This document shows, piece by piece, positions 38,274 through 64,000 of a DNA stretch of 64,000 bases. The position numbers and the translations under genes were made by a program. This stretch comes from a virus, in UHGV virus genome UHGV-0060833; one strand, written 5' to 3'. Below the pieces are notes generated by a model. That model was not told where the DNA came from and made no database searches. It saw only the letters and a list, made by a program, of their open reading frames with translations. How positions within the stretch are numbered: position 1 is the stretch's first letter; every line of letters begins with the position of its first letter.

Positions 38274-38462
38274 TAAATATATTATTTTTAATCTGAAATA
38301 ATTGACAACTGACAAGTGACTTCAGTCAGAATCATCACATGCCCGGTACGGATGGATCCCTTTTCAAATATTCCATGGACGGCACAGTCTGAGTACCGGG
38401 CGCTACCTTCAGTTGTATTGCTAAGCCGCCGCTGGTGGCTTTTCTTTTTTATAAGGGGCGCT

Positions 38463-39104
38463 ATGGATAAGAAAATATGCGTTGTTTCGATGAGCGTCGG
38501 CAAACCGGCGTCAATGACTGCCGCATGGATCAACAATGAGCTGATAATGGCTGAGCGGACCAGCTACCCTGAACGCCGCCGCGATATGGAACTCCAGCTG
38601 CTGCGCGAATTGCGAGAAAAAGAGGAAAAGGGTTTTATCGTGCTGGTGGAAGAGGAAAACAGCTTTATTACGGGTCGAGTTGGCCAGCGTGTAAGGTTGC
38701 GCGATCCCTTCATGAACGGCAGGCCGGTACTAATTGAAGCAATGCAGATTTACAAGGAGCTGGAACGCCAGAAAGCGATCAAGTTACCGCGCAAAGAATC
38801 CGGCAAATACATCCTCCACCAAAGCATCTTCGATTCCGAACACGACAAAAAAGGCGATGAATTTTTCAACATCAACTGGAGCGAAATAACGACAGAGCAC
38901 GTTCTGTCGTTGTTATGCTGCTTCGCAACGGAATATAACAACGTTGCAAGCGCCGACTACATCAGGGCAATGGCTGGAGAAGTTGAGGCTCGCCAGGAAC
39001 CATCGTTACTAAGCCCTCTGATTAACATAATTCGCGGAACCCAATGTCTAGCCGACAAGCGAGTTCCTCAAGGCTTACTTACCGGCAAAGAAAACTATTT
39101 ATAA
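38463..39104 (+). CDS. Hypothetical protein (P1 mat position)
   Basis: AAGGGG RBS before ATG at 38463; 213 aa; the upstream part of ORF 38316..39104 is probably not translated. Confidence 0.5.
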   Translation: MDKKICVVSMSVGKPASMTAAWINNELIMAERTSYPERRRDMELQLLRELREKEEKGFIVLVEEENSFITGRVGQRVRLRDPFMNGRPVLIEAMQIYKELERQKAIKLPRKESGKYILHQSIFDSEHDKKGDEFFNINWSEITTEHVLSLLCCFATEYNNVASADYIRAMAGEVEARQEPSLLSPLINIIRGTQCLADKRVPQGLLTGKENYL

Positions 39105-39194
39105 TTAATTACGTCAGTAGCCAATAGAGATTTTTGTTGTGGAACAAAAATATATATTTTACAATCTAGTAACTTTGGGTGGGGGATTATTACA

Positions 39195-40235
39195 ATGATG
39201 AATATTAAGCCGCTGAAAATTAGGAACAAGGTCATGAAGCCTCATAAAGCATTATTAAACCCTGACCTAACCGCAAGGAATGTACTTACATACAGTCATT
39301 GGGATTTTGTCGAACTCTGGTTAAAGCGAAACGAAAAAGATGAGGCTCTTTTTTATTGGGAGCAAGCAAAAGTATTTAATCAGGCGGCCAATGGTTTACC
39401 CAACCAATCAGCCCCACTTTTGCACTATTATTCATTCATGAATGCAGTAAAGGCGTTACTTTCATCTCGCAATATAAACTTCAAACAGCATCATGGTGTT
39501 GCTAGGGGTGAAAATGCAGCCCAAATTGATAACTTATCTGATATAAAAGTAAAAATAAAAAATGAGGGTATACTTCCGTCTTTTTCAAAATATATTGACG
39601 GCACCTCTCATGAGGGGGTGTACAATATAAAAAACCTTTTTTCTGGATTGCCATATATTCATCGTACATATTGCCTTACTTATGATGTAACTGATGATAT
39701 ATTTATTCCACTGATCGATGCTGAGTTCGTTTTGAATGAGTCAGACAATAGCCTGTTTTTCACTGCGATTTTATCCAAGGATTTTCGGTTCGACACAGTT
39801 TTCGACATTCTACCGCCAGCGTTCGAATTGTTTGAAAGAGAAAAGTACAAAATAAAATCAGTAGAATCATTACTTGATTATAATGAAAATCAATCGTCCA
39901 ACATGCCGCAATTAACTGAATTTCATAAAAAAATAAGAAGAAATCTTTACTATATCAATGGCGCAGAGACTCTTTGGTATCTCAAACGTAAAAACAATCA
40001 ATCTGAGCATACTTCTGTTTCAATATCGCCATTGGTTATAACCCTAGCAGCTATGCATCGATTAAGTGAGCTATGTCGGTATGACCCACTTAAGCTAAGA
40101 CAGTTACTAAATGAAAAAGAAAACTGGATTATTGCTGAATTTATTCAACAATCTCCGTCACAGTTTATAGATGCAATTTCATCTGAAATTACTGGACACC
40201 AATTTCTTATCCCAAACGTAAGGTCTGCTTCTTAA
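39195..40235 (+). CDS. Cassette gene A: uncharacterised 346-aa protein, lower GC, weak HEPN-like Rx6H motif
   Basis: GGGTGGGGGA RBS; by-eye GC ~37-38% vs backbone mid-40s; no motif confidently recognised (LLHYYSFMNAVKALLSSRNINFKQHHG is HEPN-like at best); occupies the P1 res/mod position. Confidence 0.7.
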   Translation: MMNIKPLKIRNKVMKPHKALLNPDLTARNVLTYSHWDFVELWLKRNEKDEALFYWEQAKVFNQAANGLPNQSAPLLHYYSFMNAVKALLSSRNINFKQHHGVARGENAAQIDNLSDIKVKIKNEGILPSFSKYIDGTSHEGVYNIKNLFSGLPYIHRTYCLTYDVTDDIFIPLIDAEFVLNESDNSLFFTAILSKDFRFDTVFDILPPAFELFEREKYKIKSVESLLDYNENQSSNMPQLTEFHKKIRRNLYYINGAETLWYLKRKNNQSEHTSVSISPLVITLAAMHRLSELCRYDPLKLRQLLNEKENWIIAEFIQQSPSQFIDAISSEITGHQFLIPNVRSAS

Positions 40236-40744
40236 TGAATATATATATCGCATGCGCTTTAACTCATGTTCCAAGGGAAATTTTCCATGAGTACAGTAAT
40301 TGGATTCACAGCCTTGCAAAAGGTCTATCTCAAAATAACAACGTAAAATATGCTTTGATAAATAGTGACCCAGAATTATCAAAGCGCCCTGAAAGTAACA
40401 AATCTAGACTTTGTTACATTTGGGACAGAGATATGGTTGAGAAATCTGATGTAATAATTGCAGAATGTAGTTTTCCATCAACAGGGCTAGGAATAGAGTT
40501 GCAGATTGCTGAACAGAAGAACATTCCTGTAATCATCTGTTATAAAGATTATGGGATAAATAAAACTAAAACCATTGAATACGTGAATCCAGATGAGACT
40601 ACCCATAATCTACAAGTTGGCGAGGGTTTCATTTCTCATATGGTATTAGGACTACCAAACATCCTTGATGTCATATTATGTAAAGATATTGATAACACAT
40701 GCAGGAAGCTAAAAATACTGTTAGATATGATTAACCATAATTAA
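40235..40744 (+). CDS. Cassette gene B: nucleoside 2-deoxyribosyltransferase / DNPH1-like (NDT-fold) protein
   Basis: 169 aa; N-terminal IYIACAL and SDVIIAECSFPSTGLGIELQIAEQKNIPVI match the NDT/Rcl catalytic-Glu block (G-x-G-x-E-L-G-Y-A); ATG overlaps gene A stop (TAATG). Confidence 0.6.
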   Translation: MNIYIACALTHVPREIFHEYSNWIHSLAKGLSQNNNVKYALINSDPELSKRPESNKSRLCYIWDRDMVEKSDVIIAECSFPSTGLGIELQIAEQKNIPVIICYKDYGINKTKTIEYVNPDETTHNLQVGEGFISHMVLGLPNILDVILCKDIDNTCRKLKILLDMINHN

Positions 40745-40802
40745 AAATTAACACCCACTTAAGATGTCTAAACCAGCCCGGTATTAACCGGGCTAGACAA
40801 AC

Positions 40803-41051
40803 TTAATCAGCATTCAGGAGCAATGCATTATCTATGATGATTTGCTCCCATTCTTCGAATGCCCGGTCGCGGACGCCCTGGGGAACGCTGTTAGTTTTGA
40901 AATCGACGACCGTACGCCATTTCCCGTCCGGACGGTACATGCGCAGAGCTTTACTTCCCCCCTCCCTGCGCACCTCAACGTTATGCTTATCAGCAAACTC
41001 TTGTAATGCTCGTAGCGTCCCATGCTTTACTGTGTAGTATCGCTTTTTCAA
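40803..41051 (-). CDS. lxc: Small protein (P1 lxc position)
   Basis: 82-aa ORF, last gene of the darB operon orientation; name by position and size. Confidence 0.5.
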   Translation of the reverse strand: MKKRYYTVKHGTLRALQEFADKHNVEVRREGGSKALRMYRPDGKWRTVVDFKTNSVPQGVRDRAFEEWEQIIIDNALLLNAD

Positions 41052-53590: not shown

Positions 53591-53596
53591 TAAAAA

Positions 53597-53614
53597 CCCC
53601 GTCAGTTGGCGGGG
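53597..53614 (-). terminator. Minus-oriented terminator immediately upstream of the HipA-like gene
   Basis: CCCCGTC-AGTT-GGCGGGG hairpin preceded on plus strand by TAATAAAAA. Confidence 0.5.
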
Positions 53615-53787
53615 AACTCCACGTCAAATGGCCAATTGTTATGTCAGCTAGCAGTTAAAGCGCCTAGTCATCATCTTTTAAAGAAGTCTTTTTAACTTAC
53701 CTAAATTAGTGACACCTCCCGTTTTGCTTGCTATTGTACGCATTCATGAATCTATTCATTAATCTATTCACAATAGTAATTAAAACT

Positions 53788-55092
53788 ATGGCTATACATG
53801 CAACAACAATCCGTAATTTGCTCAATCAAGGTCCTATGACACCAAGACAATTGGTTGAAAGACTAAGTGTTAGCCAACCAACGATATCTAGAGCATTAAG
53901 AGATCTTGGTGATGAAATCGTTAGGATCGGAAATGGAAGATCTATTCAATATGCTTTACGAGACTCTTTTAGAGGATTCGAATCAGTCCCCATTTATCGT
54001 ATAACTGAAGAGGGGTGTATTTGCGTTCTTGGTACTCTCATTCCGGTGAGGCCAGAAGGCTATGTTATGGTTGAGGAAGGGAAAAATAACAGGCATAGCG
54101 ATGGGTTACCTTGGTGGTTATTTGATATGCGTCCACAAGGCTTCCTTGGAAGAGCATATGCATCAGCATATGCTCTTGAACTTAACCTTCCCTCAAATCC
54201 AGAGCAATGGTCAGATACTGACGTGATCAAAGCCTTACTTAAGCATGGGCATGATGTTGTTGGTAATTTGTTAATTGGAGAGCAAGCACGCACGCATTTT
54301 TTAGAGATGCAGCCTCCTGTTCCTGTTAATCGTGAAAGTGAATATCCTGTATTAGCTTTAGCTGCTGGTGAAGGTGATGTGCCCGGTTCATCTGCTGGAG
54401 GTGAACAACCCAAATTTTGTACTTTCACAGAGCGTGGACATGTATTAGTGAAATTCTCTGCGCCTAACGACACCCCTATAAGTGAGCGTTGGAGAGATCT
54501 CTTGTTTGCTGAACATCTCGCATTAAAAGTTCTGGGGGTAGAAACAGAAGTTTTTGATTATAACGGTCAGAGATTCTTGGAAATTCCCCGATTTGATCGT
54601 GTTGGTCAACTAGGTCGGGTAGGTGTATTCTCACTTCGTGCACTTGATGCAGAATTTGTTGGGAATGCAAGAGCAACATGGCCCTTGCTGGTTAAAGAGT
54701 TGGTAAAAAATAAGTGCGTCCATCCTGATGCGATTATTATAGCAACAAGGCTATGGTCTTTTGGTTTGCTAATAGGCAATACCGATATGCATAATGGTAA
54801 CCTATCGTTTATTAGTAGCCACGGACGCCCATATCATATTGCTCCAGCCTATGACATGTTACCTATGGGTTTTGCTCCACGCTCTGGGGGAGCAATATCT
54901 AATGAGCTTAGAAAAACAGCACTACCAGACTTTGTAAGTCGAAAAATATGGGATGAATCTCTTGAATTGGCTGAAAAATTTTATGCATTGGCCTGTGAGT
55001 CCGACAAATTCTCAGCTAACTTTACTCCATGTTTAGAAGCGCTACGCATCCACCTAGATGATTGTAAGATACGCATAGCCCGCCTGGCATAA
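53788..55092 (+). CDS. HipA-like Ser/Thr kinase with N-terminal winged-HTH (YjjJ/HipH-like)
   Basis: HTH MTPRQLVERLSVSQPTISRALRDL; HipA-like GDVPGSSAGGEQPKF and catalytic-loop-like IGNTDMHNGNLSF; by-eye GC lower than flanks. Start may be 53746 or 53728. Confidence 0.75.
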   Translation: MAIHATTIRNLLNQGPMTPRQLVERLSVSQPTISRALRDLGDEIVRIGNGRSIQYALRDSFRGFESVPIYRITEEGCICVLGTLIPVRPEGYVMVEEGKNNRHSDGLPWWLFDMRPQGFLGRAYASAYALELNLPSNPEQWSDTDVIKALLKHGHDVVGNLLIGEQARTHFLEMQPPVPVNRESEYPVLALAAGEGDVPGSSAGGEQPKFCTFTERGHVLVKFSAPNDTPISERWRDLLFAEHLALKVLGVETEVFDYNGQRFLEIPRFDRVGQLGRVGVFSLRALDAEFVGNARATWPLLVKELVKNKCVHPDAIIIATRLWSFGLLIGNTDMHNGNLSFISSHGRPYHIAPAYDMLPMGFAPRSGGAISNELRKTALPDFVSRKIWDESLELAEKFYALACESDKFSANFTPCLEALRIHLDDCKIRIARLA

Positions 55093-55098
55093 ACAACA

Positions 55099-55120
55099 AA
55101 TCCCGCCGATTGGCGGGATT
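55099..55120. terminator. Bidirectional terminator between HipA-like gene and the end of the darA operon
   Basis: AATCCCGCC-GATT-GGCGGGATT perfect 9-bp stem with T-rich flanks on both strands. Confidence 0.7.
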
Positions 55121-55123
55121 TCT

Positions 55124-55432
55124 TCAATATACGATCTGGTCTGCATGATCACCAAAATCATCGTCGTCGTCCTCATCGCCACCATCTACTGCTGGCCAAT
55201 CAACAAACCAGCCAGCGTAAAGATGCAGCGTTCGGAGAACATCACTTGCGGGAGCATCAAGGGTGTTAACGAATCCCATATAGCTATTGGGATTTGCCCC
55301 AGCTATGGCTTCAGCGATCATGTCCTCGGTAATGTCACCGGAGATAATGCTTAAACGCCCGGAAACTTCTTCATTATCATCAAATTCGATAATGGCATCT
55401 CCGCCTAATGGCGCTGCGATTTTAATCTGCAT
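55124..55432 (-). CDS. Small acidic protein, last gene of the darA operon
   Basis: 102 aa with poly-Asp tail; start overlaps ddrB stop. Confidence 0.5.
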   Translation of the reverse strand: MQIKIAAPLGGDAIIEFDDNEEVSGRLSIISGDITEDMIAEAIAGANPNSYMGFVNTLDAPASDVLRTLHLYAGWFVDWPAVDGGDEDDDDDFGDHADQIVY

Positions 55433-62539: not shown

Positions 62540-62850
62540 ATGCTAATAGGCTATGTACGCGTATCAACAAATGAACAAAACACTGCTTTACAACGAAACG
62601 CTCTTGAAAGCGCAGGATGTGAGCTAATTTTTGAGGACAAGGCGAGTGGAAAAAAGGCTGAACGACCAGAGTGAAAAAGGCTTTTGATAGGTAAACTCTG
62701 GTCGTATGAAAGTTAAATTTGCGTGGGTGCAGCATGCGCTCACTCTTGAGGCATGAACGGTAATCATCTGATAACTTGTAGCTCGATTATCCGGACGCAC
62801 TGGAACCAGTCGATGCTTCCAGCGATCCAGATATTTCATTAAATGGACTA
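62540..62850 (+). pseudogene. cin: Decayed cin-type serine DNA invertase
   Basis: [44 protein letters not shown] then TGA; shifted frames still read TLVV.KLNLRGCSMRSLL (cf. TLVVWKLDRLGRSMKHLISL); 3' part missing, U gene ends at 62848. Confidence 0.8.
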
Positions 62851-63282
62851 CGCCTCCGGGAACGCTGGCCAATTGACATCTGGTGCAGTGCTGGTATCCG
62901 TTGCGGTCACCGCATCGATATAATCCAGCACAGCGTTAAGACGGGTGGTTTCAGCCTGCGTAAGATTCCGCCCGGCCTGTAATTTCAGTTGAATAAGACT
63001 AATGGAAGCCATTGCGGTATCAATCAGCGACTGTTTTTTCTGTTCAGCGTCAGCTACCAGTTCATCATGAGAACGTTCCGGAGTGGGTGGCGCAGTAAAT
63101 CCCCCGTCTGAATACCCCCAGCCGATTCCGGGCTGCTCACTGATATCAGAAATATTAATGAGCTGCTGATTATCCGGCACTGTGAATTCAGCCTCGCCAT
63201 CCCAGACAATGACATTCACAACCATCCCATTTTCAATAACTGCATATGACGTATTCATTATGCAAACTCCTCGATAATACAA
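62848..63282 (-). CDS. Tail fibre assembly chaperone (U/Tfa-like)
   Basis: 144 aa; overlaps the 3' end of the fibre gene, as in Mu/P1 S-U pairs. Confidence 0.7.
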   Translation of the reverse strand: MYYRGVCIMNTSYAVIENGMVVNVIVWDGEAEFTVPDNQQLINISDISEQPGIGWGYSDGGFTAPPTPERSHDELVADAEQKKQSLIDTAMASISLIQLKLQAGRNLTQAETTRLNAVLDYIDAVTATDTSTAPDVNWPAFPEA

Positions 63283-64000
63283 ATCCCTGAAGCGCCTTTC
63301 CCGCCCGTCATACTGGTTCCGCTATAACCGGCATCGTATGCGCCACCTCCGCCTGAACCATATGCTTTACCGATAACACCACCGCCAGCGCCTGCACGTC
63401 CACCGCCGCCCCAGTACGATGTTCCGCCTTCACCGCTGACGCCGATATTTCCGGACTGACCGTCGCCTCCATGTCCACCAGTGATGCGGATATCGCCAGT
63501 ACTCGGCACACCGCCGTTACCACCGTTTGTGTTTGTGACTCCTGACTTTCCGCCGCCTGAGCCACCAGGAGCAATTAACGATGCGAATACACTATTCCCG
63601 CCACTGGTGCCGTTCGTCGCACTAACACCACCGGCCCCACCTGCGCCGATAGTGACTGGATAACTATTCTGTGTCGGGGTCATTATTGAAATTATTGTCC
63701 CACCGGCCCCACCGCCAGCACCGAAAAACGTCTCGCTGCTCGAGTATGCCTTGCAGCCGCCCCCTCCGCCACCGCCGCCCGTTATTGTGACCCTGATCCG
63801 TTTTGTTCCTGGGGTTGGGGTATACGTACCTGATGAAGTGAAAACCTGGGTATTCACCAAACGCCCAACATATCCGCTTGAATCGCTCAGGCCAAGGTTA
63901 GCAGCAGTTAAAGTAATATTTGCAGAACCATCAAACTTAACACCGTTGATAGTGCGTGCAGTCTGTAGTTTCGTTGCGGTTGCGGCATTACCGGTAGTGC
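63258..64000 (-). CDS. Tail fibre protein, C-terminal variable part (5' end beyond window)
   Basis: Frame open to the window edge (…ATKLQTARTINGVKFDGSANITLTAANLGLSDSSGYVGRLVNTQVF…) followed by Gly-rich repeats; ORF-track start at 63860 is an internal TTG. Confidence 0.75.
   Translation of the reverse strand, partial: TTGNAATATKLQTARTINGVKFDGSANITLTAANLGLSDSSGYVGRLVNTQVFTSSGTYTPTPGTKRIRVTITGGGGGGGGCKAYSSSETFFGAGGGAGGTIISIMTPTQNSYPVTIGAGGAGGVSATNGTSGGNSVFASLIAPGGSGGGKSGVTNTNGGNGGVPSTGDIRITGGHGGDGQSGNIGVSGEGGTSYWGGGGRAGAGGGVIGKAYGSGGGGAYDAGYSGTSMTGGKGASGICIIEEFA

Follow-up and report, generated by a model that had tools for sequence, protein, structure and literature searches.

The window that we analyzed, a 64,000-nucleotide (64-kb) stretch of the virus genome UHGV-0060833, is a P1-like phage-plasmid that carries a two-gene cassette, whose open reading frames we call genes A and B, preceded by cre, c8, ref, and mat and followed by lxc, ulx, and darB. 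The locus comprises the following features.

38352 to 39104, plus strand: mat, P1 backbone, whose stop codon is the left edge of the cargo slot; 96.4% identity to P1 363-3468.
39105 to 39194, plus strand: cargo-specific spacer, with a promoter-like TTGTGG-17 nt-TACAAT at 39137-39165; the ATG is preceded by a G-rich Shine-Dalgarno sequence.
39195 to 40235, plus strand: gene A, YaaC family, 346 aa; a noncanonical HEPN four-helix bundle split by an alpha/beta insert.
40235 to 40744, plus strand: gene B, DNPH1/nucleoside 2-deoxyribosyltransferase (NDT) fold, 169 aa; predicted nucleotide N-glycosidase or transglycosidase.
40775 to 40794, no strand assigned: perfect 8-bp hairpin AGCCCGGT-ATTA-ACCGGGCT, between the convergent gene B and lxc.
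40803 to 41051, minus strand: lxc, P1 backbone, where P1 homology resumes at the stop codon; 98.2% identity to P1 from 9750 onward.

The initial annotation described A and B as two coupled genes of lower GC content occupying the position at which P1 carries res and mod, and both elements of this description proved accurate. The reading frames have one base in common in a TAATG junction, an arrangement of translational coupling. Their GC content of 0.34-0.37, compared with ~0.50 in the flanks, makes them the two lowest-GC kilobases in the window and marks the cassette as foreign in origin. By BLAST, homology to P1 (NC_005856) runs up to the stop codon of mat (window 39104, P1 3468) and restarts at that of lxc (window 40803, P1 9750), so that 1,698 bp stand in place of the 6,281 bp that hold res/mod and an IS5 in P1. 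Since P1 3469-9749, which encodes the EcoP1I res/mod pair, has no counterpart in the window, the cassette is neither a res/mod remnant nor a type III restriction-modification (R-M) system. The spacer between mat and gene A is common to P1, SJ46, and RCS47 for only ~15 nt past the mat stop codon. The sequence at 39137-39165, picked out by eye, is a weak candidate for the promoter of A and B; a consensus scan of the spacer for promoters and terminators called nothing, because the -35 hexamer matches at 3 of 6 positions. At the other end, the GCCCGG/CCGGGC stem of the hairpin also fills the empty mat-lxc site of RCS47, and the element is probably a resident bidirectional terminator of the backbone that forms the right edge of the insertion point.

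Comparison of related elements demonstrates that the mat-lxc interval is a genuine cargo hotspot and bears out the suggestion that immunity genes are exchanged there. The slot is occupied by type III R-M systems in P1 (EcoP1I) and P7 (EcoP7I), by CapRel-SJ46 in SJ46 (identical to PDB 7ZTB), and by SIR2-family, PIN, and DUF2971 proteins, another RelA/SpoT protein, or an IS-disrupted CapRel in sampled Escherichia coli plasmids; in RCS47 it is empty. CapRel-SJ46 is a validated anti-phage system (PMC9712102). Every cargo has its own spacer after mat, and all end at the backbone hairpin. We surveyed 5,426 complete E. coli genomes, of which 699 contain the lxc-ulx backbone of P1-like elements; 109 of these 699 carry the A+B pair, corresponding to ~2% of the genomes and ~16% of the P1-like elements in them. 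This makes the pair commoner in E. coli than either P1's own restriction system or CapRel-SJ46, as EcoP1-type res was found at 57 plasmid places and CapRel-SJ46 in 14 genomes of the same set.

Gene B had been proposed to encode a DNPH1/NDT enzyme with a catalytic glutamate, and profile, structural, and conservation analyses all agree with this assignment. The single sequence scores 22.1 bits (E 1.8e-4) against Pfam PF05014 (Nuc_deoxyrib_tr), under the curated cutoff of 28.8, and many homologues have a precomputed match to the same family. When a profile built from 45 homologues was compared with the PDB, it matched Rcl/DNPH1 chains (E 4e-5), and in this alignment D64, S82, and E88 correspond to the Asp, the PSLG-motif Ser, and the nucleophile Glu of Rcl. 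D64 and E88 are invariant in the family and S82 is nearly so. The motif containing S82 and E88 lies within residues 81-100 (PSTGLGIELQIAEQKNIPVI). Y4, in strand 1 (IYIA), is also invariant and may correspond to the Tyr that Rcl and the NDTs have in that strand. The AF2 model (pLDDT 96.2) adopts the flavodoxin-like NDT fold, and Foldseek assigned a probability of 1.00 to its matches with DNPH1, BcmB, and several NDTs (best E 5.6e-6). We therefore regard gene B as a DNPH1/NDT-type enzyme that retains the catalytic Asp and Glu, with a predicted N-glycosidase or transferase activity. The Ser of the PS(T/L)G motif presumably contacts the 5'-phosphate of the substrate, as it does in Rcl structures. 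As gene B has Ser at a position where nucleoside-specific NDTs have Asp, this analogy suggests a 5'-phosphorylated substrate. The candidate substrates of B are dNMPs, NMPs, and NAD+. The family is compact, comprising 34 representatives at 50% clustering (E <= 1e-30), and second-tier relatives of 250-565 aa, when inspected for fusions, contained a helical basic tail but no YaaC or dCTP-deaminase (DCD) domain.

Gene A, which the initial annotation could match to nothing, turned out to be a full-length member of the Pfam YaaC-like family (PF14175; 156.4 bits against a cutoff of 27, E 1.5e-45), with residues 34-332 aligned to profile positions 18-307 of 307. At least 758 homologues were found. The earlier suggestion that the protein is HEPN-like holds at the level of fold, and the Rx6H motif on which it was based does not support it. 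The helices at about 35-65, 73-91, 279-296, and 310-333 form a four-helix up-and-down bundle, and an alpha/beta insert of ~180 residues (about 100-278) separates helices 2 and 3, where inserts in HEPN domains usually sit according to the 2013 HEPN census. On these grounds of fold, gene A is a noncanonical, split HEPN protein; by sequence, it matched no Pfam HEPN-clan family and no PDB chain, even with the insert spliced out, and the census has no entry for YaaC. The cited Rx6H (R92 to H99) is present in this copy. It is not conserved, since either K or R occurs at position 92 and the residue at 99 is variable, whereas the adjacent H100 is invariant; moreover, it falls just after helix 2, and the canonical catalytic site is at the end of helix 3. 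There, the sequence M287-H288-R289-LSELC-R295-Y296 offers Arg with no His 4-6 residues on. Because the His of the canonical Rx4-6H is absent, any RNase activity of gene A is uncertain. In the insert, H100 and H156-R157 are invariant. The census describes AF0298 as the prototype of HEPN-T proteins, in which the motif His is missing and the insert carries a conserved His, and by analogy H100 and H156 of gene A may represent a similar alternative-His arrangement. In Foldseek searches against the PDB, the full-length model retrieved nothing significant, and the insert resembled no solved structure and no ligand-binding fold. A marginal match to Usb1/2H-phosphoesterases (Foldseek probability 0.07) was discarded: H156 is located in a helix, and the protein has a single HxT motif.

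The two genes constitute a conserved operon and are almost never found apart. Scans centered on gene B added 121 loci (35 in species-representative genomes, 6 on viral contigs, and 80 in metagenomes), giving 132 in all, not de-replicated, of which 124 are informative after setting aside 8 at contig edges. YaaC lies directly upstream of B on the same strand in 119 of these 124 loci, mostly with a gap of -20 to +15 bp. The same arrangement was seen for all seven distant B homologues that were looked up, and in the reverse direction B was found downstream of the gene A homologue in 3/3 cases. The pair spans at least seven phyla, with hosts among the Alpha-, Beta-, and Gammaproteobacteria, Bacteroidota, Myxococcota, Desulfobacterota, Campylobacterota, Armatimonadota, and Planctomycetota, and most copies are chromosomal. 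Mean column identity across phyla is 55-58% for both proteins. Phage genomes almost lack the pair: IMG/VR yielded 6 loci only, 4 of them the very element of this window, and INPHARED contained no record.

In four loci, the place of YaaC is taken by a dCTP-deaminase-like protein (PF22769, E 1e-26) that is coupled to B by the same 4-bp overlap and had no match among the PADLOC dCTP-deaminase models. This protein has a hydrophobic C-terminal tail, which may tentatively be read as transmembrane, a call that we downgraded because the soluble gene B has a similar hydropathy maximum. At one locus an IS fragment stands instead of a partner, and that orphan B has lost Glu88.

The immediate neighbors of the pair include GajA/GajB (Gabija), type I R-M, MADS, PDC-M19, and PDC-S31 components. 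At single loci it is located beside PycTM or next to BrxL and a PLD nuclease, and at another it is flanked by BrxR with an integrase on one side and a Dpd cluster on the other. Next to the pair 318-360 PADLOC families were matched, and in the control 135, an enrichment that is qualitative only because control ORFs 5-10 kb away still match PADLOC models, among them components of BREX, Wadjet, Mokosh, and R-M systems. Some loci have surroundings of a housekeeping kind: deaminases occur among nucleotide-metabolism genes at one (L011), and a 5'-nucleotidase lies directly upstream of the pair at another (L010).

That A and B together correspond to no nameable defense system, as the initial annotation had remarked, agrees with our database searches. 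Neither protein matched a family in PADLOC-DB 2.0.0 at E <= 1, nor in NCBIfam 20.0 (June 2026) or PHROGs, and the RefSeq names of September 2026 are 'YaaC family protein' for A and 'hypothetical protein' for B. The searchable literature contained nothing on the pair. The pair thus matches no catalogued system among PADLOC 2.0, NCBIfam, and PHROGs, and may have been named recently, in the newest DefenseFinder models or in screens of 2024-2026. The domains themselves are well precedented, since both NDT/DrHyd and HEPN are established components of biological conflict systems (PMC3710099, PMC7736814, PMC9503650).

Comparison with better-known systems places the cassette more precisely. Gene B shares its fold with DNPH1/Rcl, BcmB, and MilB (target-normalized TM up to 0.79 at the Foldseek E given above), and its PS(T/L)G-x-G-x-E block aligns with that of DNPH1/Rcl, including the Glu that acts as nucleophile, the Asp upstream of it, and the Ser of the phosphate site. 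It differs from these enzymes in its low identity (~15%), in ~30 extra C-terminal residues, in falling below the Pfam cutoff, and in having a HEPN-fold partner and moving among defense islands. Compared with AF0298-like HEPN-T proteins, gene A carries the 180-residue alpha/beta insert instead of a short loop. The HEPN-MNT toxin-antitoxin class is excluded as an identity, as the sole partner of gene A is encoded downstream and has the NDT/DNPH1 fold, not that of an MNT nucleotidyltransferase. Type II-A retrons (Retron-Eco1/Ec86 and Retron-Sen2) use an NDT/DrHyd-fold toxic anti-phage effector that is held in check by a partner (PMC7736814). [quoted passage not shown] With CapRel-SJ46 the cassette shares insertion point, orientation, size class, possession of its own spacer, and an end at the backbone hairpin, although CapRel-SJ46 is an unrelated protein, a toxSAS toxin-antitoxin fused into one chain, which pyrophosphorylates tRNA. 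Finally, the dCTP deaminase and dGTPase depletion defenses and Thoeris have in common with the pair that they target or use nucleotides; a DCD-fold protein substitutes for YaaC in the loci described above. The Thoeris TIR domain belongs to a sister superfamily of DrHyd/NDT (PMC9503650), and the A+B pair has no TIR, SIR2, or SLOG component.

Taking the breaks in P1 homology, the slot cargos, foreign GC content, linkage, neighbors, enzyme fold, partner swap, decayed orphan B, conflict-system precedents, and prevalence among P1-like elements together, all of which we counted in its favor, we propose at about even confidence that the cassette is a self-contained, mobile, two-gene, nucleotide-targeting anti-phage module, carried as lysogenic-conversion cargo in the defense slot of P1-like elements. 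The defense role is inferred from context, and it could take the form of superinfection exclusion or abortive infection. Against the proposal we counted the qualitative nature of the island signal and the housekeeping surroundings of some loci, the missing canonical His and the fold-level basis of the HEPN assignment in gene A, the sub-cutoff Pfam score of gene B, and the weak promoter candidate. In such a scheme, A and B would form a complex, and on infection B would act through a covalent Glu88 intermediate to cleave the N-glycosidic bond in a substrate of the (deoxy)nucleoside 5'-phosphate type. DNA precursors, possibly including the modified dNMPs of phages, would thereby be destroyed irreversibly. 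The 180-residue insert might enable gene A to act as sensor or regulator, and an alternative HEPN RNase site of the AF0298 kind might also make it a second effector. The exchange of A for a dCTP-deaminase-fold protein in rare loci points to deoxynucleotide catabolism as a common logic.

The same exchange can be read in a different way. In a signal-and-effector system resembling Thoeris, infection would activate B to generate a signal: as an NDT-type transglycosidase, it would make a base-exchanged or otherwise altered nucleotide, and the effectors that bind this product would be YaaC (a ligand-binding insert joined to a HEPN RNase) or, in a few loci, a DCD-fold domain with a possibly membrane-disrupting tail. 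We consider this unlikely on balance. Systems in which one signal generator serves variable effectors typically show the pattern seen here, a constant B with a swapped partner, HEPN and membrane-tail proteins belong to the classic types of effector, and NDT enzymes are natural transferases with a covalent Glu intermediate; DrHyd is in addition a sister superfamily of TIR and SLOG and has been proposed to generate signals (PMC9503650). The cross-phylum identity of 55-58% would also fit recognition of a small molecule, as opposed to fast-evolving phage proteins. However, B has only 169 aa and no additional domain for sensing, the canonical HEPN His is missing from gene A, no ligand-binding fold is recognized in its insert, and the DCD variant amounts to four loci with a tentative transmembrane call. 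A more specific version, which we judge quite unlikely, would make the pair a new form of nucleotide-signaling immunity, in which a DNPH1/NDT transglycosidase, not a TIR, cyclase, or CD-NTase, produces a base-modified signal; the ligand might then activate a noncanonical HEPN nuclease by binding the YaaC insert or, in a minority of loci, be sensed by the DCD-fold protein with its membrane-active tail.

Stabilization of a low-copy P1-like plasmid by a plain toxin-antitoxin or addiction module, with no anti-phage role, is improbable in our estimation. Either a HEPN-type toxin would be neutralized by B, or B would be the toxin and A its antidote. This idea draws on the two-gene, translationally coupled organization of the operon on a plasmid, on the decay of the orphan B after partner loss, and on the fact that AF0298-like HEPN proteins are typically the toxins of HEPN-MNT pairs. 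It is weakened by the predominance of chromosomal copies in diverse phyla, by a partner that is not an MNT nucleotidyltransferase, by the defense systems that make up the other mat-lxc cargos, and by the Phd/Doc system that already serves P1 for addiction. Toxin-antitoxin and defense roles are, for their part, compatible with each other.

A housekeeping function in nucleotide-pool sanitation, comparable to that of DNPH1 with hydroxymethyl-dUMP and with YaaC as an accessory on a metabolic cargo, has only a slim chance of being correct. DNPH1 and the BcmB/MilB relatives are metabolic enzymes, and the deaminases at L011 and the 5'-nucleotidase at L010 are suggestive company; against this, the pair is sporadic, horizontally transferred, low in GC, and restricted to ~2% of E. 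coli genomes, it resides in a phage defense slot and in defense islands, and metabolism offers no reason for its obligate coupling with a HEPN-fold protein. The slimmest chance attaches to counter-defense, in which the pair, like its neighbors, the anti-restriction genes ulx and darB, would act against the host by destroying immune signaling nucleotides or NAD-derived signals: DrHyd- and SLOG-type enzymes can process ADPr-derived signals (PMC9503650), but the absence of PHROG matches and INPHARED records, the handful of IMG/VR loci, and the mainly chromosomal occurrence in bacteria beside defense genes all run counter to it.

If the anti-phage reading that we favor is correct, the cassette would represent a two-gene defense system built on a DNPH1-type nucleotide N-glycosidase, a class of enzyme known from human nucleotide sanitation and antibiotic biosynthesis and not as a stand-alone, partnered immune component, and it would provide the first function for the uncharacterized YaaC family. 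The rare replacement of YaaC by a dCTP-deaminase-like protein offers a natural experiment on mechanism. The mat-lxc slot, which has already yielded CapRel and also holds uncharacterized SIR2, PIN, and DUF2971 cargos, is a compact and easily mined hotspot. Given the prevalence of the pair in E. coli, a defense role, if true, would probably mean that it shapes the outcomes of superinfection and phage therapy in clinical and livestock E. coli.

Among 699 E. coli genomes with P1-like elements, the majority carry cargo other than the YaaC-B pair, EcoP1-type res or CapRel-SJ46, the slot cargo of phage SJ46, between the mat and lxc stop codons. On four such E. coli plasmids the mat-lxc slot is filled by a single uncharacterised gene:

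L144, 3155-4459, SIR2-family protein
L145, 3487-4437, PIN-domain protein
L146, 3408-4418, DUF2971 protein
L147, 3335-4462, RelA/SpoT protein

The last of these was missed by megablast with the CapRel-SJ46 gene as query. A GC-rich hairpin with a GCCCGG/CCGGGC stem precedes lxc both in the window and in RCS47 (L059), where the slot is empty:

window 40775-40794, hairpin before lxc
L059 about 2713-2733, hairpin before lxc

Because this stem is common to the occupied and the empty site, cargo seems to insert after the stop codon of mat and ahead of a resident, putative terminator.

A second segment foreign to P1, at 53592-55125 of the window, stands where P1 has IS1 and the isaB region, and it contains this ORF:

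53728-55092, + strand, MarR/ArsR-HipA_C ORF, 454 aa

In its product an N-terminal HTH of MarR/ArsR type is fused to a HipA_C kinase domain (Pfam E 3e-15), and the gene resembles a YjjJ-like toxin kinase carried as single-gene cargo; none of the PADLOC defence-system models matched this protein convincingly. The last 1.26 kb of the window (62745-64000) also departs from P1, the counterpart there being cin and the invertible tail-fibre C-segment. These comparisons with P1 concern the window downstream of its initial 35.6 kb (1-35638), the stretch that would pair with P1 56-94.8 kb.

Gene B, the DNPH1/NDT-type member of the pair, also occurs with a different partner. In four loci it is translationally coupled to a dCTP-deaminase-like protein, and YaaC is absent as partner:

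L021, 9009-10004, dCTP-deaminase-like gene
L030, 8946-10004, dCTP-deaminase-like gene
L074, 1304-2299, dCTP-deaminase-like gene
L102, 3-326, dCTP-deaminase-like gene

This partner (331-352 aa) ends in a hydrophobic C-terminal tail, keeps the motifs RSSYxRxG, INPGWxGHVPLE and SKYMNDDGGPSYWWRD, and had no matches among PADLOC models. An orphan gene B homologue (L106, 827-1351), with an IS transposase fragment in the place of the upstream partner, has lost both the catalytic Glu that is invariant elsewhere (GLGVALQ) and the Arg of WDR. In a sister family (P0293-P0366; for example P0298 and P0315) the B-like domain retains Asp and Glu (CYxxDQ ... PSTGTGQELERA) and is followed by a long, basic, helical C-terminal extension; two members, P0330 and P0364, have tandem B-like domains.

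At L010 the YaaC-B pair is directly preceded, with 22 bp between, by a further gene:

L010, 5410-6882, same strand as the YaaC-B pair, 5'-nucleotidase (PF06189), 490 aa

This enzyme may be a third, nucleotide-related component of the YaaC-B system in the L010 lineage. The name 'YaaC' occurs twice in PMC4909258, which deals with integron gene cassettes of the human oral metagenome, a hint that YaaC-family genes are mobile as integron cassettes too.
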